The position numbers and the translations under genes were made by a program. DNA of 64,000 nt, taken from NCBI GenBank assembly GCA_963737655.1, contig CAVTTN010000002.1:1696001-1760000 (forward strand). The letters run 5' to 3'. Of the stretch, positions 29,971 through 39,963 are shown one piece after another. The DNA is from an uncultured Planctomycetota bacterium (lineage in GTDB: Bacteria; Planctomycetota; Planctomycetia; Isosphaerales; Isosphaeraceae). Positions within the stretch are counted from its first letter, which is position 1. Every line of letters starts with the position of its first letter. A model generated the notes under the pieces. The model made no database searches. It was not told the DNA's origin and worked only from the letters and a program-made list of their open reading frames with translations.

Positions 29971-30612
29971 ATGTTGAAGCCCCTGTCTTTGAGCGTCAGC
30001 CTGGCTGTCGCCCTGGGCGCGTGCAGCCTGAGCCTCGCCGGTGGTCACCTGAAGACCTATGCGTCGGGCCAGTGCGAGACCGTCGCCAGCCCGCAGTCGG
30101 TCGTCCCCTCGGCGCAGAGCATCGGGGAAGGCTGCGGCGAAGTCTGCGGCCCCGTCGCCAAGAAGTCCTGCTTCGGCAACCTCTTCAAGCACAAGCCCAA
30201 GACCTACACCTACGAGTGGGTCCTGAAGAAGAAGCGTTGCGGCGGCCTCTTCGGCGGCGGCTGCGGCACGGCCACGGCCGGCGGCTGCGAGTCCTGCGGG
30301 ACGGCCCTGCCCTCGGCCCAGTACCCGAGCAGCCAGTCTTATGGCAGCGCCCAGTACCCGACGACCTACAGCGCCCCCCAGGGCAGCTACAGCGCCCCGC
30401 AGGCCGGCTACAGCGCCCCGCAGTCCGGTGGCATGACGGCCGCCCCGGCGGCCGCCGCCGCCCCGACGATGGAAGCCCCCCCGGCCCCCGAAGTCGCCCC
30501 GGCCCCGGCTCCCGCCCCGGCCCCGCCGACCAACCCCGCCCCCGCCCCCCCGGCCCCGGCCCCGCCGACGGCCTCCAACGGCGGCCTCCAGCTCCTGCCC
30601 TCGGGCAACTGA
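29971..30612 (+). CDS. Small secreted Cys-rich protein with YSAPQ repeats and Ala/Pro tail
   Basis: RBS AAGGAG; signal peptide; 9 Cys; YSAPQ x3; own terminator. Confidence 0.85.
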   Translation: MLKPLSLSVSLAVALGACSLSLAGGHLKTYASGQCETVASPQSVVPSAQSIGEGCGEVCGPVAKKSCFGNLFKHKPKTYTYEWVLKKKRCGGLFGGGCGTATAGGCESCGTALPSAQYPSSQSYGSAQYPTTYSAPQGSYSAPQAGYSAPQSGGMTAAPAAAAAPTMEAPPAPEVAPAPAPAPAPPTNPAPAPPAPAPPTASNGGLQLLPSGN

Positions 30613-30645: not shown

Positions 30646-30681
30646 AAGCCCACGCACCCTCGCGGTGCGTGGGCTTTTTTT
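30646..30681 (+). terminator. Rho-independent terminator
   Basis: AAGCCCACGCACC-loop-GGTGCGTGGGCTT followed by a T run. Confidence 0.9.
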
Positions 30682-31081: not shown

Positions 31082-32562
31082 ATGCGGACCGATTCCACGC
31101 CCCGGACCGACCCCTCGCTGGACCGGCTCCCCTCGCGGGTCCGGCGGGCCTGGCGGTGGCTCTCCGGGCGGAGCCCCCAGGTCAGGATGGCCGTCGCCGG
31201 GGCCGCCCTGATCGCCCTGATCGCCGCCGGCTACGTGGCCACGACGGCCCCCGAGCCGGTCGAGACCGCCTGGCTCCACGGCGACCGTCCGTTGACGCCC
31301 GAGGAGCTGGAGGCCGTCCTCGCGGCCCTGAGCGAGGGGAAGATCCCCGCCTCGGCCTCCGAGCGGGGCCGGGTGGCCGTCCCGGCGTCGCGACGCGGCG
31401 AGGCCCTCGCCCTGCTCGCCCGCAAGAAGGTCGGCCCCAAGGGGTTGCGAGAACTCCACGAGCAGGCCGTGGCCGCCTCGCCCTGGGAAGGACCCGCCGA
31501 GAGGGCCGAGCGCCAGCAATGGCTCAAGACCCAGGAATTGGAGGTCGGCCTCGCCAAGCTCCCCGGCGTCGCCTCGGCCGAGGTCCGGATCAATCGGGCC
31601 GCCGGCCACGGATTCGGGCCCAAGGCCCCGAAGGTCGCCGCCATCGTCTGGCTCCGCCCGGCCGACGGCGAGCCCCTGCCGCCCCCGACGATCAAGAACG
31701 TCCAGGCCGTCGTCAAGTCGTTCGAGCCCGACCTGCCCGACGACGCCCTGTCGATCTTCGACGAGTCCGGCCAGGCGTACCTGATCGCCGGCAACCCCGA
31801 GGCCGGCCAGGAGCTGATGGCCCACGCCCGCGAGGAGCAGTTGCGGAGGCGGATCAAGCGCGACCTGGAGTGGATCGACGGCGTGAGGGTGTTCGTGACC
31901 CTCGACCCGATCGCCCCGGCCCCTCCCCATCGGGCCGAGAGCCGCCGGGCCCGGCCGCGACGCTCCCGCCGGGTCCCGTGGCCGTGAACCTCCCGGCGGA
32001 GGTCGCCGCCTCGGCCCCGGCCCCGCCTCCCTCGCCGACCCCTCCGCCCCCGACGGCCGCCGCGCCCCGGGCCACGGTCCTGGTCCAGGTCCCGATCAGC
32101 CACTACATCGACCGCTTCCAGAGGCTCCACCATCGCGACCCCTCGCCCGAGGACCTCCGGCCTTACGCGGCGAAGACCGAGGCGTCGATCCGGGCGACCG
32201 TCGAGCAGGCGATCCCGGCGGAGTTCGCCTCGATCCTCAAGGTCGATCGCATCGACGACCCCGGGCCCGAGCGGCCGTCGGTGGCCCCGGCCGACGCCGA
32301 GTCCCGGAGGGACCGGGCGTGGTGGCCGATCGCGGCCCTGGCCGCTTCGGCCGCCGCGGCGACGTTCGCGGCCGTGACCACCCGGAGGCTCCTGGGCCGA
32401 CGGCCCGCGGTCGAGGCCGCCGCCCCGAGCCGGCCCTCGGCCTTCGAGGTCGGCGACTCCGCCGGGCCGGCCGAGAGGGTCCGCGAGCTCGTCCGGCTCG
32501 ATCCCTCGGCCGCCTCGGGCGTCCTCCAGCGATGGATCGGGCGGGGAGGGACCGTCGGATGA
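31082..32562 (+). CDS. fliF: FliF/SctJ-like M-ring protein, frameshift near 31930
   Basis: TM, ring-building motifs (GRVAVP, ELEVGLAKLPGVASAEVRI, LSIFDESG), second TM, C-terminal RELVRLDPSAASGVLQRWI motif. Confidence 0.75.
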
Positions 32563-33125
32563 CCCCCCGGACCGAACCCGCGCCCTCCTCGGCGATCCCC
32601 TCGGCCTCGCCCCCGGCCGCCGAGACCGACCCCCTGCGGAAGGCGGCCATCCTGGTCGTCAGCCTGGAGCAGCCGCTGGCCTCGCAGCTCCTCGCGCACC
32701 TGGACCGCTCGGCCGTCGAGGCGGTCACCCTGGAGATCGCCCGGCTCGATCGGATCGCCCCGGCCGAACAACGTGCCGTCCTTGAGGAGTTTTACGGCCT
32801 GGGCCTCCGTCGGCTCCGATTTGTGTTCGACGACCTGGTGAGGCTGGACGATATAGATCTCAGGGAAGCGTTCCACGACGAGGACGCGCCGGCCTGGGCG
32901 GTGGCCCTGGCCGGGGCCTCGTCTCCGGTCCGGGCCAAGGTCCTCTCGGCCCTGGCGCCCGGGTCGGCCGCCGCCCTGAGGCGGGCCCTGGACGGGATCG
33001 GGCCGTTCCGGCTCGACGACGCCGAGGCCGCCCAGGCCGAGCTGGCCGAGCGCTTCCGCCGGCTCCACGACCACGGCCGGATCACGCTACCAGACCCCGA
33101 CGGTCGGGAGGAGATCCTTGTCTGA
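32559..33125 (+). CDS. fliG: Short FliG-like protein (N domain joined directly to C domain)
   Basis: RKAAILVVSL N-terminal motif; FVFDDL and GPFRL..EAAQ C-domain motifs. Confidence 0.8.
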   Translation: MTPRTEPAPSSAIPSASPPAAETDPLRKAAILVVSLEQPLASQLLAHLDRSAVEAVTLEIARLDRIAPAEQRAVLEEFYGLGLRRLRFVFDDLVRLDDIDLREAFHDEDAPAWAVALAGASSPVRAKVLSALAPGSAAALRRALDGIGPFRLDDAEAAQAELAERFRRLHDHGRITLPDPDGREEILV

Positions 33126-33426
33126 CCTCGTCGATTTCGAAGACCTCGGGCAGCTCGACGGCGGCGACCTGAGGGCCGTGTTCGGCCAGGTGAGCCTCGA
33201 TCAGGTCCTCGCGGCCCTGATCGGGACCACCCCGGCCTTCCGCCAACAACTCCTGACGAAGCTCGCGCCGGCCTCCGCCGTCAAGCTGGAGAGCCGGGTC
33301 AAGACCCACGGCCCGGTGGCGTTCGCCACCGTCCAGGCCGCCCAGCGCGACCTGGTCGAGGCCCTCTGCCGCCTCAGCCGGGGCGGGCAGGTCGCCTTCG
33401 ACGACCCGGCCGACATGGTGGCCTGA
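33118..33426 (+). CDS. Stand-alone FliG C-terminal domain protein
   Basis: DFEDL..AL.G..GPV..VQAAQ..L.RL..GGQV. Confidence 0.8.
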   Translation: MSDLVDFEDLGQLDGGDLRAVFGQVSLDQVLAALIGTTPAFRQQLLTKLAPASAVKLESRVKTHGPVAFATVQAAQRDLVEALCRLSRGGQVAFDDPADMVA

Positions 33427-33754
33427 CCGACCGCGACCCTCGGGCCGGCCTTCCGCCGCCCTCTCCCCCGCTTGCTTCGGGGGAGAGGGTCTACCAGGGC
33501 CTCACGACCACCCCTCCCCGGGGATCGTCCGGGGCCGTTTCCTCCTCGGTGGGCGATTCTTCCGAGGGGTTTGGGGCGGCACGGGTTCCGTCCTCGGAAT
33601 CCGTGCCGCCCCAAATGCTTCCGGCCGAGAACCTCTCGGAAAAGGAAACGGCCCCGGGGGATCGTCGAACCGCTCTGGACGCGCCCTCCGAATCGTGTAC
33701 CCTGACGCCGCCGGTCGTCCCGGAGGGCCTCGGGTGATGCGACAAGGAGCGTCG

Positions 33755-34234
33755 ATGCCGCGTACGATCTCGCGACTCGCGGCGGCCGTCTGCGTCTTTT
33801 CGACGAGCTGGGGCCTCGGCCCGGGCCCTCGGGCCTCGGCCGACGAGCCGGCGCCGACGGTCGCCCTGCCGAACCCCTCGCGCCATCCCACGTCGCGACC
33901 CGTCGGCGGGAAGCCGGGGGCCTCGACCGGCTCGGGCGGCTTCTGGCTCGGCTCGGCCGGGGTGGCGGTCGCGTTGGCGGCCTTCGGAGGACTCAGCCTG
34001 GCGACGAAGAAGCTCCGCCCCTCCGGCGGCGACTCCCCCACGCTCCGCGTGGTCGGCCGGGCCGGGTTGTCGCCGAAGCACAGCGTTTATCTCCTCCGGG
34101 TCGGCGATCGCGTCCTGATCGTCGGCGCCGGGGGCCAGGGGCCGCCGTCGCTCCTGGGCGAGATCACCGACTCGAACGCCCTCGGCCGGCTGATCCCCGA
34201 TCGCTCGCCCGGCGGGGCCGGAGGCTCGTCATGA
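33755..34234 (+). CDS. fliO: FliO-like export assembly protein
   Basis: RBS AAGGAG; TM followed by LRVVGRAGLSPKHSVYLLRVGDRVLIVG. Confidence 0.8.
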   Translation: MPRTISRLAAAVCVFSTSWGLGPGPRASADEPAPTVALPNPSRHPTSRPVGGKPGASTGSGGFWLGSAGVAVALAAFGGLSLATKKLRPSGGDSPTLRVVGRAGLSPKHSVYLLRVGDRVLIVGAGGQGPPSLLGEITDSNALGRLIPDRSPGGAGGSS

Positions 34235-35073
34235 AACGCCCCGGCCTGGCCGTGGGGCTGGCCCTGGTCGCCGTCGTCCTGATCGCCGGGGCCGACTCGC
34301 CCCGGGACGGGGATCGCGACGGTGACGGCGGGAAGGTCGCCCTCTCGGACTTCTCCGACATCCGGATCCCGCCCAGGCCCGAGCCCGTCTCGGCGCCGAC
34401 GGCCGCCGTCCCCGCGCCTCCTCCGGTGGCCGCGTCGATCCAGACCGTCGTCCTGTTCGCGTTGATCTCGCTCGCCCCGGCCGCCGCGCTGATGGTCACG
34501 GCCTTTGTGAGGATCAGCGTCGTCCTGACGCTCCTCCGCCAGGCGCTGGGCAGCCCCCAGGTCCCGGGCAATCAGGTGTTGATGGCCGTGGCGCTGCTGC
34601 TGACGGCCCTGGTGATGCGCCCGGTCGCCGAATCGGTGTATGAACGGGGGATCAAGCCGTATTCCGAGGGCCGGCTCGAACCGATCCCGGCGTGGGAGGC
34701 CGGCACCGGCCCGATCAAGGATTTCATGATCGAACAGATCTGCCGGACCCACCACGAACGCTACCTCTGGGAGCTGTACGACCGCACCAATCCCCCGGCC
34801 GGCACCCCGGAGCCGACGGACTGCTCGCAGTTCTCGCTCGGGGTGGTCGCCCCGGCGTTCCTCCTCAGCGAGCTGACGACCGCCCTGTTCATCGGCTTCG
34901 CGATCTACTTGCCGTTCCTGGTGATCGACCTGGTGGTCTCGGCCGTGCTCTCGGCGATGGGCCTGTTCATGATGCCGCCGTCGCTCGTGGCGCTGCCCCT
35001 GAAGCTCATCCTCTTCGCCCTGGCCGACGGCTGGATGCTCGTCGCCGGGATGCTCTTGAGGAGCTTCCTGTAG
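34231..35073 (+). CDS. fliP: Export gate protein FliP (SctR)
   Basis: TAFVRI..LRQALG..PGNQVL, PAFLLSEL, YLPFLVIDLVV, LPLKLILF..DGW. Confidence 0.95.
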   Translation: MKRPGLAVGLALVAVVLIAGADSPRDGDRDGDGGKVALSDFSDIRIPPRPEPVSAPTAAVPAPPPVAASIQTVVLFALISLAPAAALMVTAFVRISVVLTLLRQALGSPQVPGNQVLMAVALLLTALVMRPVAESVYERGIKPYSEGRLEPIPAWEAGTGPIKDFMIEQICRTHHERYLWELYDRTNPPAGTPEPTDCSQFSLGVVAPAFLLSELTTALFIGFAIYLPFLVIDLVVSAVLSAMGLFMMPPSLVALPLKLILFALADGWMLVAGMLLRSFL

Positions 35074-35201
35074 GGTGCATGAAATGCACCAGTCTGGATT
35101 CTTTGGTTTTGCAAGATCTGCATCGGAAGGGCGGCCCGGGGCCGCCGGGTGCCTGGTGCATTTCATGCACCCTACATGACGGTGCATTTCATGCACCCTA
35201 C
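35070..35201. repeat. GTAG REP-C cluster (one forward, two inverted copies)
   Basis: GTAGGGTGCATGAAATGCACC; GGTGCATTTCATGCACCCTAC at 35155 and 35181. Confidence 0.85.
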
Positions 35202-35210
35202 GGGGGATTC

Positions 35211-35471
35211 ATGGATACGGTCATCGACTGGTCGCGGGAAGCCGTCCGGATGGCCTTGCTTCTCGGCGGGCCGATCCTGCTGGCGGCGCTGGTGGTGGGC
35301 CTGGTGGTGGGCGTGGTCCAGGCCGTGACCCAGATGCATGAGCCGGTCGTCGGCCAGGTGCCCCGGCTGATCGCCGTGGCGGTGGTCGTGTTGCTGGCCC
35401 TGCCGTGGCTGATGGCGACGTGGGTCGGCTACGCGAGCGAGTTGATCGGCTCGATCCCGGACCGTCTCTGA
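35211..35471 (+). CDS. fliQ: Export gate protein FliQ (SctS)
   Basis: P.LLAALVVGLVVGVVQAVTQMHE..VPRL; 86 aa. Confidence 0.92.
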   Translation: MDTVIDWSREAVRMALLLGGPILLAALVVGLVVGVVQAVTQMHEPVVGQVPRLIAVAVVVLLALPWLMATWVGYASELIGSIPDRL

Positions 35472-35490
35472 GGCGAGGGAGCGTCTGCCG

Positions 35491-36264
35491 ATGGGCCGGA
35501 CCCTCGACTTCTTGCTGGCGATCGCGGCCGACCGCGCCGGCGATTACGCGCTGATCGCGGCGAGGGTGGGCGGCCTGGTGGCGACGGCGCCCGGGTTCGG
35601 CACGTCGGCCCTGGGCTGGCGGGTCCGCGTGGGCCTGGCGATCGTCTTGACGCTGGCCGTCGCCCCGGCCGTGGGGCCGATCGCCACCCGGCCGGCGGGC
35701 TTCGAGGCGATCGCCCGGCTCGCCCTCGGCGAATTCGGCCTGGGGGCGGCCCTGGGGATCATCGCGGGCCTGGTGATCGCCGGGGCGAGGCAGGCCGGAG
35801 ACCTCGTCGGGATGCAAGCCGGCCTCGCGCCGGCCAGCCTGATCGACCCCGAGGCCGGCGACGACCTGAACCCGCTGGGCCACCTGTACGGAGGCCTGGC
35901 CCTGGGCGTGTTCCTCGCGATGGACGGCCCGCTCGTCCTCGTCGGCTCGCTCGTCGAGAGCTACCGGGCGATGGGCGTCGGCGAGGTCGAGCTCTCGGCC
36001 GAGACGGTCGATCGGGCGTTCGCCCGGATCGGCTGGGGCCTGTCCCTGGCGATCCGGGCCGCCGCCCCGGCCGCCCTGGCGATGGCCATCGCCGGGGCCG
36101 CCCTCGGCCTGCTCGGCCGGGCGGCGCCGTCTCTGGGCCTGATCAGCCTGAGCATGCCGGCGAGGATCGCCCTCGGCCTGGTCCTGGCGATGATGGGCCT
36201 GGCGGCCCTCGCCGGGGTGTTCGAATCCGCGTGGATGGACGCCCTGCGGTTCGGGACCGGATAG
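35491..36264 (+). CDS. fliR: Export gate protein FliR (SctT)
   Basis: ARQAGDLVGMQAGL..IDP, LGRAAPSL, six-TM pattern. Confidence 0.9.
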   Translation: MGRTLDFLLAIAADRAGDYALIAARVGGLVATAPGFGTSALGWRVRVGLAIVLTLAVAPAVGPIATRPAGFEAIARLALGEFGLGAALGIIAGLVIAGARQAGDLVGMQAGLAPASLIDPEAGDDLNPLGHLYGGLALGVFLAMDGPLVLVGSLVESYRAMGVGEVELSAETVDRAFARIGWGLSLAIRAAAPAALAMAIAGAALGLLGRAAPSLGLISLSMPARIALGLVLAMMGLAALAGVFESAWMDALRFGTG

Positions 36265-36294
36265 GGCGGTTTTCGATGGCTTTCGATGGCTTTC

Positions 36295-36363
36295 GTAGGG
36301 TCCGCTCTTGCGGACCTCCCGGCGGCTTCTCGGATCGAAGAGGTCCGCATTAGCGGACCCTAC
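36295..36363. repeat. GTAG REP-D inverted doublet
   Basis: GTAGGGTCCGCTCTTGCGGACCT ... AGGTCCGCATTAGCGGACCCTAC. Confidence 0.8.
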
Positions 36364-36398
36364 AAAAACCTTGGCCAACCGTCCTGAGAGGAGCCGCC

Positions 36399-37463
36399 AT
36401 GTCCGAAGACCGGACCCAGGCGCCTTCGGCCCGCCGTCGGCAGGAAGCCCGGGAGATGGGCGTGGTCGCCCGGAGCTCGGAGCTGACCGCCGCCGTGGGG
36501 CTGCTCGCGGCCGTGGCCTTGCTCGGGGCGTTCGGCGAATCGCTCGGCTCGGGCCTCGTCAACCTCGTCCGAGGCCCGTTCGTCGAGGGATCGATCCCTC
36601 CGTCCGACCCGTCGGCCGTCGTGGCGAGCGTCCGAGCGGCATCGGGGAAGGTCTTCGGCCCCCTGATCGGCCTCCTCGGCGGGACCGTCCTGGCGATGGT
36701 CGCGGCCCATCAGGCGCAGGTCGGCGGGATCTTCACGCCGGGCCGCCTCGCCCCGGACTTCACCCGGCTGATGCCCTCCTCCGACGGCGGCTTCCTCGCC
36801 CGAGGGGGTCGCGGCCTCTGGGGCCTGGCCAAGGCGGTCGTCGTCGTGGCCGTGGCGGCGTGGGCGATCCGGTCGCGAGGCCCCGAGCTCGCCCGCCTCG
36901 GCCATCTCGACCCGCCCGCCCTGATCTCGGCCGCCGGATCGATCGTCCGAAGCCTGTTCTTCGCGCTGGGGGTCGCCACGCTGGCCCTGGGCCTGATCGA
37001 CCTGGCGATCCAGAGGGCGAGGGTCGAGGCCCTCCTGCGGACGACCCCTCAGGAGCAGCGCGAGGACCAGAAAGCCATCGACGGCGACCCCGCCGTGAAG
37101 GCCCGCCGCCACCGCCTGGCGAAATCCTGGAGGAGCGACCCGGGGGAGATCCTCGCCGGGGCGTCGCTGGTCCTGACCGGCCCGGGGAACCTCGCCGTGG
37201 TCCTCGCCGGAGGTCCCCCGCCGGGCCGGATCACCGTCCGGGGCTCGGCCCGGGGAGGCTCGGGCGCGACCCTCGCCAAAGCGGCGAAAAAGGCCGGGAT
37301 CGGCACGATCGACGCCCCCGGGCTCGCCCGCCACTTCGCCCGAGGCGCCTCGGCCGGGCCGGCCCTGCCTCCCGAACTCGACGCCGAACTCACCCGGCTG
37401 TGGGTTCGCCGGGCCTCGGAGGGGCCGCCGAGGAGTCCAGCCGTGGCTCCGGATCGTCTCTAG
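36399..37463 (+). CDS. flhB: FlhB (SctU)-like export protein lacking NPTH
   Basis: EDRTQAPS.RR..ARE.G.V.RS.EL; DGDPAVKAR; cytoplasmic domain IDAPGLAR. Confidence 0.88.
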   Translation: MSEDRTQAPSARRRQEAREMGVVARSSELTAAVGLLAAVALLGAFGESLGSGLVNLVRGPFVEGSIPPSDPSAVVASVRAASGKVFGPLIGLLGGTVLAMVAAHQAQVGGIFTPGRLAPDFTRLMPSSDGGFLARGGRGLWGLAKAVVVVAVAAWAIRSRGPELARLGHLDPPALISAAGSIVRSLFFALGVATLALGLIDLAIQRARVEALLRTTPQEQREDQKAIDGDPAVKARRHRLAKSWRSDPGEILAGASLVLTGPGNLAVVLAGGPPPGRITVRGSARGGSGATLAKAAKKAGIGTIDAPGLARHFARGASAGPALPPELDAELTRLWVRRASEGPPRSPAVAPDRL

Positions 37464-37483
37464 CGGGGTCGAGGGCGGTTCCT

Positions 37484-37567
37484 GTAGGTTCCGCTCTTGC
37501 GGACCTCTTCGATTCGATGAGCTGCCATGAGAGGAGATGCGAAGAGGTCCGCAAGGGCGGACCCCAC
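37484..37567. repeat. REP-D inverted doublet
   Basis: GTAGGTTCCGCTCTTGCGGACCT ... AGGTCCGCAAGGGCGGACCCCAC. Confidence 0.75.
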
Positions 37568-37589
37568 AAGAACCGCTGAGAGAGCCACG

Positions 37590-38021
37590 ATGTTCGGGAT
37601 CTACGACGACCAGGGAATCCGCTTCGAGTACCCGCCGGGCTGGGAGGTCGAGGTCACCGACGACGGCCCCCGCCGGGTCATCGCGATCGAGTCGCCCGAC
37701 GGACCGGCGTTCGCCATGATCACCGTGGACGAAAACCGCCTCGCCCCGGCCGACATGGCCGACGAGGCCCTGGCCGCCATGCGGGACGAATACCCCACGC
37801 TCGAAGCCGTCCCCGCGCTGGACTCGATCGACGGCCAGAACGCGGTGGGCTTCGACGTCGAGTTCTTCAGCCTGGACATGCTCAACGCCTGCTCGATCCG
37901 CTGCTTCCGAACGCCGAGGCGGACCGTCCTGATCTTCGGCCAGTGGATGGAAGACGACGAGGACGACCCCGGGGCGGCCATCGCGGCGATCGCCCGCTCG
38001 ATCGAGGAGACCGACGCCTGA
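37590..38021 (+). CDS. Hypothetical acidic protein (PsbP/DcrB-like fold possible)
   Basis: GIRFEYPPGWEV N-terminal motif. Confidence 0.75.
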   Translation: MFGIYDDQGIRFEYPPGWEVEVTDDGPRRVIAIESPDGPAFAMITVDENRLAPADMADEALAAMRDEYPTLEAVPALDSIDGQNAVGFDVEFFSLDMLNACSIRCFRTPRRTVLIFGQWMEDDEDDPGAAIAAIARSIEETDA

Positions 38022-38076: not shown

Positions 38077-38412
38077 ATGGCTTCGGCGACCACCCCGCAG
38101 ATCCGCCTGGACGACCGGGGCCGGGCGGTGATCGACGACACCCGCATGAAGGTGAAGATGCTGGTGCTCTCCCGGATCGCCCACGGCTGGGGGATCGACG
38201 AGTTGCAGACTCAATATCCCCACCTCTCCCGAGAGCAGGTCGAGGCGGCCCTGGTCTACTACGACGCCCATCGCGCCGAGATGGACGCCGAGATCGAACG
38301 GGAATATCGGGAGGTGCAGGAGCTGCGGGCCCGGCAATCCCCGAAACAGCCGACGCGGGAGGAACTGGTCGCCAGGTTGGAGGCGATGCGGGCCTCGGGC
38401 AAGCGGCCGTGA
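38077..38412 (+). CDS. DUF433-family antitoxin
   Basis: IDDTRMKV..G..ELQTQYPHLSREQVEAALVYY. Confidence 0.9.
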   Translation: MASATTPQIRLDDRGRAVIDDTRMKVKMLVLSRIAHGWGIDELQTQYPHLSREQVEAALVYYDAHRAEMDAEIEREYREVQELRARQSPKQPTREELVARLEAMRASGKRP

Positions 38413-38756
38413 GCGTGGCCTTCTACCTCGATCACAACGTCGATCGCGCCGTGGCCGAGGGGTTGCGACTCCGGGGGGTGGACGTCCTGACCGCCCTGGA
38501 GGATGGGACCACGACCCTGGCCGACCCGGACCTCCTGGATCGCGCCTCCGCCCTCGGTCGGGTCATCGTGACCCATGACCAGGACTTTCTCCGGGAAGGT
38601 CCGGCTCGTCAGCGAACGGGCCGGACCTTCGCCGGCATCCTGTACGCGCACCAGCTCGACGTCTCGCTTGGCCGACTGATCGACGACCTCGAATTGATCG
38701 CGCAGGCCCAATCGCCCGAAGATTACGCGGGTCGAGTCCGCTACTTGCCTCTGTGA
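38409..38756 (+). CDS. DUF5615 PIN-like toxin
   Basis: [35 protein letters not shown] overlap with the antitoxin. Confidence 0.88.
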
Positions 38757-38799: not shown

Positions 38800-39963
38800 T
38801 CACGGGGTGAGCGACCCCGCCGGGAACATGGTTCCGATTCGGGGGCAGTTCTCGTCGAGCAGCGCGTCGATGTTCGCGAGCTCCAGCGACTTGCCGTAGG
38901 CCCGGAGCTTGTCGCGGGTGATGTCGCGGACGAACGGGATGTTCGAGACCGCCTGGAGCTTGATCCACCCGGTCAGCCAGCCCTGCTCGAAACTCTTTTG
39001 CAGGGGGTCCTTTTCGACGTTCGGCAGGTCGGCGATCCGCACGACGTCCACATTTTTCAGCAGGACCGGGGCGTCCTTGTCTACGTCCTTGGCGGTCAGG
39101 ACCAGGGTCTTGTCCACGACCTGGGCCGGGTCGAAGCTGGCGTCGAAGGTGTCGTCGTCGGTGTCCACCGCCGTCCTCCAGGCCTCGATCTGCTGGGCGA
39201 CGACGAGCATCTCCTGCATGACCCGCTCGTTGATGGCGTTCTGCCACTGCAAGGGGTTGGCGGGGATGGCCTTGATGGACGCCGGGCGCAGGGTCGCGCC
39301 GGCGGGGCCTCGGACCGCGAACTTGGACAGGTCCTTGATCCCGTCGATCAGGAAGATGGCCTTCGCGCCCTTCATGTCCGCGTCGCTGGTCCCGAGCTTC
39401 CTCATGGCGTTGCCGACCGTCGAGCCGGCCAGGGCGCCGACGCCCCCGCCGATGAACGCCAGGGCCAGCCCCAGCAGCATGTCCTCGGCGAGCTTGACCG
39501 TGGCGTCGATGTCCTTCAGGACCTTGTTGTGCGCCTCGAACGCGTTGCCGTAGGCGAGGGAGATGCTGCTGAGCCATCCGCTGATGTGGATCTGGGCGAT
39601 CTGCACCTTGGCCACGGCGGTGTTGCACCGGGCGACGAACTGGGCCTTGGCCTCCGCCGTGCGGACGAAGAGGACCTGGGCGCCGATCTTCCGGGCCTCG
39701 GCCTTCAGGTCGAACGTCCCGGCCTGCATGTGCGCCTTGCCGGTCGCGCCGTGGGGGTCCAGGGGCACGTTCCATTCTTCCCACGTCTTGGACCCGGTCC
39801 ACCGGGTGACCAGCTTCCCGTTGTCGATCTTCCAGGAGCCGGCGCCGGTCATCCCGTTGAGCGGGTCGCTCCAGTTCACGGCCCCCTGCGCGGTGAAGTT
39901 GTAGATCCAGTTCCATTGCTGGACGTGGACGTTCCAGCTGGAATCCGTCATGGTTTGCAGCAC
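38800..39963 (-). CDS. Hypothetical protein: Trp-rich beta domain plus helical domain with hydrophobic hairpin
   Basis: RBS GGAGG; typical codon usage; LLGLALAFIGGGVGALAG segment; no signal peptide. Confidence 0.8.
   Translation of the reverse strand: MLQTMTDSSWNVHVQQWNWIYNFTAQGAVNWSDPLNGMTGAGSWKIDNGKLVTRWTGSKTWEEWNVPLDPHGATGKAHMQAGTFDLKAEARKIGAQVLFVRTAEAKAQFVARCNTAVAKVQIAQIHISGWLSSISLAYGNAFEAHNKVLKDIDATVKLAEDMLLGLALAFIGGGVGALAGSTVGNAMRKLGTSDADMKGAKAIFLIDGIKDLSKFAVRGPAGATLRPASIKAIPANPLQWQNAINERVMQEMLVVAQQIEAWRTAVDTDDDTFDASFDPAQVVDKTLVLTAKDVDKDAPVLLKNVDVVRIADLPNVEKDPLQKSFEQGWLTGWIKLQAVSNIPFVRDITRDKLRAYGKSLELANIDALLDENCPRIGTMFPAGSLTP

Follow-up and report, generated by a model that had tools for sequence, protein, structure and literature searches.

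We analysed a 64,000-nucleotide stretch of DNA (hereafter the window; positions 1,696,001 to 1,760,000 of contig CAVTTN010000002.1, assembly GCA_963737655.1) from an uncultured planctomycete of the family Isosphaeraceae, and concentrate here on an operon of flagellar export genes at 31082–37463 on the plus strand. The host genome (G000) comprises 7.63 Mb in three contigs and is 87.7% complete; the closest named relatives of the FliP encoded in the window are Isosphaeraceae. Eight genes, fliF-fliG'-fliG''-fliO-fliP-fliQ-fliR-flhB, were confirmed with Pfam and NCBIfam, at the place and on the strand given in an earlier note on this DNA, which had read them as one contiguous operon. Together they make up an export core of flagellar descent, conserved and under selection, which is distinct from both flagellum and injectisome. 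The best explanation we can offer, for which the case stands about evenly balanced, is a switch that exports the anti-sigma factor FlgM to free sigma-28. The operon contains the following features.

31082..31987, plus strand: fliF, N-terminal frame, with the first membrane segment (TM1), ring-building motifs (RBM) 1 and 2 and the start of RBM3 (PF01514, E 4.5e-12)
31903..32562, plus strand: fliF, C-terminal frame, with a Pro-rich linker, the remainder of RBM3, the second membrane segment and the FliG-binding C-terminal helix
32559..33125, plus strand: fliG', with FliG_N at residues 26–80 and FliG_C at 83–177 (Pfam)
33118..33426, plus strand: fliG'', FliG_C only (PF01706, E 3.7e-13), an accessory stand-alone duplicate
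33737..34234, plus strand: fliO, FliP assembly chaperone (PF04347, E 4.7e-6; TIGR03500, E 3.2e-9)
34231..35073, plus strand: fliP, export gate (PF00813, E 2.7e-62)
35211..35471, plus strand: fliQ, export gate (PF01313, E 2.9e-22)
35491..36264, plus strand: fliR, export gate (PF01311, E 1.7e-46)
36399..37463, plus strand: flhB, without the NPT autocleavage motif (PF01312, E 1.1e-46)

The fliF gene spans 31082–32562 in two frames, with the change of frame near 31920–31945. Its C-terminal frame was assigned by alignment with FliF of flagellated planctomycetes and by blastp to relatives in which the gene is a single open reading frame (ORF), and tblastn with the fliF of relatives also switches frame. 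Because fliF is a single ORF in 33/37 family loci with a match, and frame changes also occur at 7/58 control gene sites of the G000 assembly, an assembly error is the most likely cause, much as the earlier note had supposed. The flhF gene of G000 (L364, C2:5749600–5750730) has its first ~19 codons in another frame, probably through an error of the same kind.

For the rest of the genome, profiles built from the flagellar families of flagellated planctomycetes were searched against all six frames of G000. They matched only fliF, fliG, fliOPQR, flhB, flhA, flhF, flhG, fliA, fliW and csrA. The relevant features outside the window are as follows.

C2:5747568–5752986: flhA-flhF-flhG-fliA cluster, with flhA intact
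C2:5250439–5251409 (L365): fliW-csrA, from the profile search
C2:3348435–3348716: flgM, from Pfam
C2:6497689–6498522: gene for an RpoS-like sigma factor

The earlier note had counted flhA among the missing genes; it is indeed absent from the window, but lies intact elsewhere with flhF, flhG and fliA, and in many relatives the two clusters are united as a single operon running from fliF through fliA. FliA scores above the TIGR02479 cut-off, and the conserved charged membrane residues of FlhA, at the positions and with the roles that we presume for them, are intact. No credible match to FliE, FlgB/C/F/G/E/D/K/L, FliC/D/S, FlgA/H/J/N, FliH/I/J/K/L/M/N or MotAB was found in G000 with these profiles, the FliH/FliI/FliJ ATPase giving only sub-threshold matches to paralogous ATPases. 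A weak FlgI-like match (E 9e-12) falls in an unlinked protein of 605 residues, and we did not take it for a P ring. The genome-wide inventory thus found no full flagellar set, and a complete flagellum elsewhere in the genome is rejected. Among the called genes around the operon we recognised no secretin, SctD, needle or translocon component, no genome-wide search having been aimed at these. Orthologues of the flagellar sensor kinase and sigma-54 regulator (FlgS/FlgR-type) of flagellated planctomycetes were not found in G000, whose best kinase and regulator matches share 31–38% and 39–44% identity, compared with at least 46% and at least 55% among the orthologues.

Conservation was assessed in 61 Isosphaeraceae genomes (the family sample) and in 151 genomes of the class (the class sample). 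FliP is present in 56/61 family genomes and in all 27 of the good ones, FlhA in 59/61, FlgM in 61/61 and FliW in 60/61; in the class sample, the Isosphaeraceae are uniformly FliP-positive (36/36) and flagellin-negative (0/36). Across the family sample, flagellin over the cut-off, FliE and the type III secretion system (T3SS) ATPase C domain were each found in 0/61 genomes, and the MotB plug in 0/5. A rod/hook C-terminus occurs in one of the 61, a genome without FliP and FlhA. Pairwise ratios of non-synonymous to synonymous substitution rates (dN/dS), estimated from up to 12 pairs per gene by rough methods on GC-rich codons, with no flagellated comparison set and with the first method often falling back to simple counting, were 0.20–0.84 for FliF, 0.01–0.24 for FliG', 0.13–0.49 for FliO, 0.16–0.51 for FliP, 0.12–0.38 for FliQ, 0.06–0.44 for FliR, 0.07–0.50 for FlhB, 0.09–0.24 for FlhA and 0.005–0.07 for FliA. 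Every gene compared was below 1 in all pairs, so the check across the Isosphaeraceae proposed in the earlier note speaks for family-wide retention under purifying selection.

The note's description of the lineage as non-flagellated agrees with reports of a non-motile host family (PMC5352709, PMC12603096; these and all papers identified below by PMC number are cited for the parts of their text that were available). Four Isosphaeraceae were said to have a ‘poor representation’ of flagellar genes, tied to absent swarmer cells (PMC5352709), and a type strain with the operon on its chromosome (L085) is non-motile and budding (PMC12603096). A FliM/N- or SctQ-like protein of ~420 residues is encoded, unlinked to the operon, in 4/5 other family genomes, where it adjoins a response-regulator cluster; G000 has this cluster at the syntenic site without the FliM/N-like gene. 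A lack of FliM/N is thus wrong as a statement about the family, and holds only for G000 and G051 among six genomes. The gene forms a two-gene unit with one for a ~300-residue unknown protein, after a kinase/response-regulator cluster (L420:8047–10261 and L421–L423; G057, G052, G053, G083). The fliW-csrA pair (L365, L223–L242) is kept in 60/61 family genomes without flagellin, with CsrA almost invariant.

FliP, FliQ, FliR, FlhB and FlhA all score higher with flagellar than with injectisome models. In FliP+FliQ+FliR trees, the family forms one long-stemmed clade nested among the flagellar genes of the Planctomycetia, apart from the injectisome-type outgroup. Profile scores and tree placement, the latter a check that the earlier note had suggested, therefore agree with its view and support a flagellar ancestry; an injectisome origin is rejected on both, and no SctN ATPase was found in the search of G000. 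The outgroup is an injectisome-type export-gate cluster from a planctomycete (L178, G100:C1:412000–431999) and served in that role only.

Similar reductions are found outside the family, where 13 genomes of the class sample are FliP-positive and flagellin-negative. These reduced loci always hold fliPQR, often with fliF, fliG pieces or FliF-FliG fusions and an FlhB cut before its C domain; fusion genes occur in several independently reduced loci (L165, L170, L172, L179, L180). FlhA was found in 5/5 of the other FliP-positive, flagellin-negative genomes tested, with flhA, fliA and flgM adjacent in G170 and flhA and fliA adjacent in G086. One of these genomes, G133, has a full hook and motor operon and is therefore probably flagellated, its flagellin having been missed; it was kept among the 12 counted for FlgM below. 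An approximately unbiased (AU) test, applied to a group defined after the tree had been viewed, rejected a single clade of reduced systems (p 7e-6; 5e-7 with a mixture model), so reduction occurred more than once. In family f5, FliP is present in 9/31 genomes and flagellin in 11/31, most of the non-flagellated genomes having no gate. Four flagellated f4 genomes have two fliP copies (G080, G087, G172, G182; L176, L177, L179, L180), one in a reduced native fliPQR(B) locus and the other in a full flagellar locus, along with a full-length FlgM, which suggests that the native gate persisted while another flagellum was acquired. The earlier note's repurposed channel, distinct from flagellum and injectisome, stands in that the system is neither of these and is conserved, but it is not unique to this family, its regulatory genes are retained, and transport is a property that we infer.

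The domain composition of the encoded proteins is altered in specific places. Still present in FliF are the first of its membrane segments, RBM1 and RBM2, the RBM3 core, a second hydrophobic segment and the C-terminal helix for FliG binding. Alignment bears out the note's observation that Pro-rich sequence, here a linker with 21 Pro in 56 residues, stands in for the beta-collar. In FliG', profile positions 4–58 are joined straight to 233–321, deleting the middle, FliM-binding domain, and this junction is essentially identical in 37/37 family loci with a match (some genomes may be counted twice). The predicted structure of FliG' (predicted local distance difference test score, pLDDT, 89) matches FliFc:FliGn (5tdy) at 1.1–1.2 Å and FliG-C (1qc7) at 1.8–2.6 Å. 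At 75–98% pairwise identity, FliG' is more conserved than FliP, FliR, FlhB or FliF, whereas fliG'' is present in only 15/37 family loci. With the FliF-binding and C domains kept and the FliM-binding domain gone, FliG' is likely an adaptor between FlhF and FliF. Rotation is not possible in this system, and the claim that FliG had lost its features for rotation survives in the clean removal of the middle domain, the informative change in this protein. The loss of torque charges, at positions that we take to be the relevant ones, is not diagnostic and was dropped as evidence, because these sites vary among flagellated relatives too: by eye, most of seven flagellated planctomycete FliG sequences lack these charges too.

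FlhB lacks the NPT motif in 37/37 family loci, compared with its presence in 15/16 loci labelled flagellated, in keeping with the loss of a switching feature that the note had described. The FlhB C domain is remodelled with a new Gly-Gly-Pro-Pro-Pro loop and is still predicted to fold, and in three family loci and six other reduced loci FlhB stops before this domain. In FliP, a conserved motif in the region before the first helix is lost.

Among known type III substrates, only FlgM is left. Its N-terminal half carries the export signal in flagellated bacteria, and its C-terminal half binds sigma-28 there. The N-terminal half, with a D-x-V-x-I-S motif, is retained in 32/32 family loci, all full length, and occurs in 21/22 flagellated genomes, in 4/6 further f4 genomes and in 12/12 other FliP-positive, flagellin-negative genomes, but in none of the 12 FliP-negative, flagellin-negative genomes with a FlgM match. 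Since FliA persists in 5/5 FliP-negative genomes tested, the FlgM N-terminus tracks the gate and not the sigma factor. Within the family, the N-terminal 32 codons have a dN/dS of 0.15 compared with 0.11 for the sigma-binding part (218 non-independent pairs), and identity is 83% over the first 20 columns compared with 80% over the sigma-binding part (57% and 67%, respectively, in flagellated f3). The earlier note had left the substrate open; probably it no longer is, and with FlgM as the sole known cargo the system is better read as a regulatory device than as a general secretion machine. Genomes of f5 and f14 and some of f4 (L295–L314, L328–L330) encode a short FlgM-like protein that has only the sigma-binding end, behind N-termini that are unrelated, and in genomes with this short form FliA is kept without an export gate.

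Putative sigma-28 promoters were located with a matrix trained on flgM sites alone, where a sigma-28-type site lies ~190–245 bases before the gene in 31/32 loci (the training set). A site precedes fliA at one fixed position in 19/19 loci, 15 of the 19 scoring at least 14 (reversed control 0), and the RpoS-like sigma gene in 27/30 loci (reversed control 0/30), against a genome-wide background of 76/2901 genes. Given these conserved sites, sigma-28 appears to drive its own gene, its inhibitor and a second sigma factor. Such sites are all but missing before fliF (1/37), flhA (0/21), fliP (0/38) and fliW (2/20), so sigma-28 control of the export operon itself is unsupported. Two other candidate targets, raised by a scan of the genome, were set aside for lack of conservation, a serine acetyltransferase (a site in 1/5 orthologues) and a dockerin/Ig-like extracellular protein (0/5). 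The family-trained matrix found no site before the RpoS-like gene in five genomes outside the family (0/5). With flgM sites as its sole basis, the matrix maps only part of the regulon.

The data show directly which genes are present, their conservation under purifying selection, the domain changes, the tracking of the gate by the FlgM N-terminus and the conserved promoter-like sites; from these we infer assembly, export, binding of FliG' to FlhF, localisation, trigger and biological output as follows. The operon would be the membrane core of a former flagellum, retained as a regulatory device, in which a collar-less FliF ring surrounds the FliPQR-FlhB gate and FlhA drives this gate with the proton gradient, free of an ATPase. 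FlhF, acting via the shortened FliG', would site the ring at one cell position, with FlhG limiting the number of rings. FlgM would be moved to the periplasm, since no rod or hook exists, freeing FliA to transcribe fliA (a positive loop), flgM (a negative loop) and the conserved RpoS-like sigma gene. The outcome would be a pulse-like sigma cascade, possibly bud- or stage-specific. A bolder form of this proposal, which we hold tentatively and consider somewhat less probable than the FlgM-exporting switch as such, is that the Isosphaeraceae and, independently, several other budding planctomycete lineages have cut the flagellum down to the smallest natural type III system, a gate with neither ATPase nor needle and with anti-sigma export as its sole job. 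Placed by FlhF, the gate would act as a switch in space or development, setting off the cascade from sigma-28 to the RpoS-like factor in a single type of cell, for example the bud.

Individual steps have experimental precedent. In Salmonella lacking the rod-hook genes, Flk and the FlhB C-terminal domain, a fusion of FlgM to β-lactamase (FlgM-Bla) reaches the periplasm and FliK is not needed (PMC13344023); the early-ending FlhB of the three family and six other reduced loci is a natural counterpart of this FlhB mutant. Salmonella export is possible without FliHIJ at a high proton gradient or substrate level (PMC4230889). The N-terminal domain of FlhF binds FliG, lets FliG capture FliF and excludes FliM/N (PMC11236974), and the N-terminal region of FlhF is 67–83% identical across six family loci.

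The FlgM/sigma-28 export checkpoint of Salmonella shares FliF, FliG, FliO, FliPQR, FlhA, FlhB, FliA, FlgM and a sigma-28-type site before flgM with the family system. The family differs in having no axial structure, FliE, FliK, ATPase complex or stator, a non-autocleaving FlhB and a FliG without its middle domain. With no FliK among the profile matches in G000 and NPT absent from all 37 family loci, the parts of the FliK- and FlhB-cleavage-dependent switch were not found. In sporulating Firmicutes, the SpoIIIA-SpoIIQ channel reuses ring parts of secretion systems to license a developmental sigma factor; it has no FliPQR gate or FlgM, and its architecture and origin are other. A needleless system, T3SS*, is reportedly present in Myxococcus. 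The reduced T3SS of Myxococcales resembles the present one in being conserved and once dismissed as a relic (PMC3459982), and FliO homologues are present there too (PMC12248157), but it belongs to the injectisome branch, whereas the family nests in planctomycete flagellar FliPQR with FlhF, FlhG, FliA and FlgM. Engineered rod-hook-less Salmonella (PMC13344023) is similar, but the planctomycete system is natural and family-wide. Lysobacter enzymogenes OH11, a non-flagellated bacterium, also has flagellar export genes in use (PMC7277350, PMC7688988); it still has FliI and FlgD, and its system serves enzyme export or influences twitching, whereas the family has neither ATPase nor structural cargo. 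Legionella oakridgensis retains sigma-28 and FlgM after loss of the flagellum, with flgM under sigma-28 control, but has no basal body and apparently degrades FlgM, and so resembles the gate-negative planctomycetes (PMC5655016). In polar flagellates, the same early parts signal or mark position before any axial structure exists (PMC3760246; PMC11236974); there they serve flagellum building via FlgSR and sigma-54, the two-component system whose orthologues were not found in G000. A full-text literature search, with supplements and most subscription papers outside its scope, found no description of the system, and it is unmentioned in the available parts of PMC3459982, PMC12248157, PMC13277936, PMC3542564 and PMC12700997.

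Several observations weigh against export of FlgM. FlhB-C of most family members has its full length, cannot be cleaved and is predicted to be folded, and the best structural matches of the model in a fold search are uncleaved EscU/YscU mutants; in Salmonella, uncleaved FlhB-C prevents late (FlgM) secretion (PMC13344023). FliE, absent in the family, normally opens the periplasmic gate (PMC12403130), though FliP, too, is without its usual motif ahead of the first helix. FlgM-Bla secretion in Salmonella required overexpression, in a strain where fliE and the ATPase were still present (PMC13344023). In alignment, two gate loops, the Met-rich one in FliP and a conserved one in FliQ, are substituted family-wide, changes that could equally accompany an open or a sealed pore. 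The link between the FlgM N-terminus and the gate has exceptions: 8/8 flagellated f5/f14 genomes, seven of them FliP-positive, and three flagellated f4 genomes show the short FlgM form only, and G175 has FliP with no FlgM match. Two related families supply most of the gate-negative genomes, which therefore count as few events. Among the promoter data, an antisense control reached threshold in 5/30 RpoS-like loci with the flgM-trained matrix, and a strict pattern scan of five genomes stayed close to its control, with 20 matches compared with eight and only flgM recurring. FliW and CsrA are retained though flagellin, the known partner of FliW, is lost, for which export of FlgM gives no reason. 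Finally, Legionella oakridgensis keeps and regulates FliA and FlgM without a basal body, and Helicobacter FlgM is inactivated without export (PMC5655016).

Many of these points would be accommodated if ring and gate formed a non-exporting scaffold, a polar landmark or assembly checkpoint, with FlgM controlled by binding or protease hand-over, or with signals passed to bud-site or kinase partners, and no transport. This is a serious rival, because FlhB-C is predicted to fold, FliE is absent, the gate loops are altered and FliA and FlgM persist elsewhere without a basal body; the missing ATPase also fits. On balance we consider it unlikely, although it is the strongest of the alternatives. The high conservation of FliG' relative to FliP, FliR, FlhB and FliF, the retention of FlhF and FlhG, and the FliM/N- or SctQ-like protein adjoining a response-regulator cluster in four of five other family genomes all suit a scaffold, and the MS ring, FliG and T3SS of Campylobacter form a sensed checkpoint (PMC3760246). 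Yet G000 yielded no FlgS/FlgR-type orthologues and lacks the FliM/N-like gene at an otherwise syntenic site, and in G086 and G170 it is fliA, not flhF, that lies beside flhA. A scaffold also gives less reason than a FlgM exporter for keeping the proton-coupling residues of FlhA and the FlgM N-terminus.

The earlier note's own view of a secretion channel is more doubtful again; its substrates would be new ones, either periplasmic or surface proteins, or its function would be related to pili, and FlgM and FliA would be kept for other reasons. Non-flagellated Lysobacter (PMC7277350, PMC7688988) and Myxococcales (PMC3459982) offer precedents, and a new specificity could lie behind the family-specific changes in FlhB-C and the gate loops. 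Folded cargo normally needs an ATPase, however, and its absence makes such secretion less likely. The reduced T3SS of Myxococcus is said to keep its ATPase, as do the Lysobacter systems (PMC7277350, PMC7688988). In rough gene calls, the clusters of those family loci that were read hold no chaperone, secretin, ring partner or conserved gene of unknown kind, and the link between FlgM N-terminus and gate is left unexplained. Slow decay of a lost flagellum is very improbable and largely refuted: long branches, the low identity and dN/dS of up to 0.84 in FliF, the patchy occurrence of fliG'', FlhB-C and the FliM/N-like gene, and the earlier reading of few flagellar genes as simply matching non-motility (PMC5352709) are outweighed by the retention of FliP, FlhA and FlgM, by dN/dS below 1 in all genes compared, by one identical FliG junction in 37 loci and by survival of the same core in separate clades, whereas most non-flagellated f5 genomes have no FliP.

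If the FlgM-exporting switch is correct, the operon and its partners would be a natural minimal type III exporter, defining parts sufficient for export driven by protons, with no ATPase, FliE, ruler or cleavage of FlhB, and would bear directly on the open question of the early-to-late specificity switch. Flagellar parts would also have passed from motility into gene regulation, an exaptation by a new route that was taken several times in parallel in a single class. Control of the cell cycle in budding planctomycetes is poorly understood, and would gain a concrete cascade of FlgM, FliA and an RpoS-like sigma factor with named promoters. Sparse flagellar genes in non-motile bacteria, in turn, need not be relics.

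The surroundings of the operon hold a few further features. Upstream of fliF, 29971–30612 encodes a Cys- and Pro-rich signal-peptide protein, found at this position in ~10 family loci. By eye, a hairpin and T run follow this gene near 30648–30681, and it is therefore probably transcribed separately. The spacers in and behind the operon (33427–33736, 35074–35210, 36265–36398 and 37464–37589) hold dispersed palindromic repeats, with 49–179 blastn matches each in G000, and are missing from the compact operons of many relatives. Beyond the toxin-antitoxin-like pair at 38077–38756 lies a gene of lower GC content (38800–39963, 387 residues) with no relative at this locus among those studied. Downstream of flhB, 37590–38021 encodes a PsbP-like protein of 143 residues, a homologue of which also stands behind flhB in some Pirellulaceae loci (L090, L102) and near flhA in L429.

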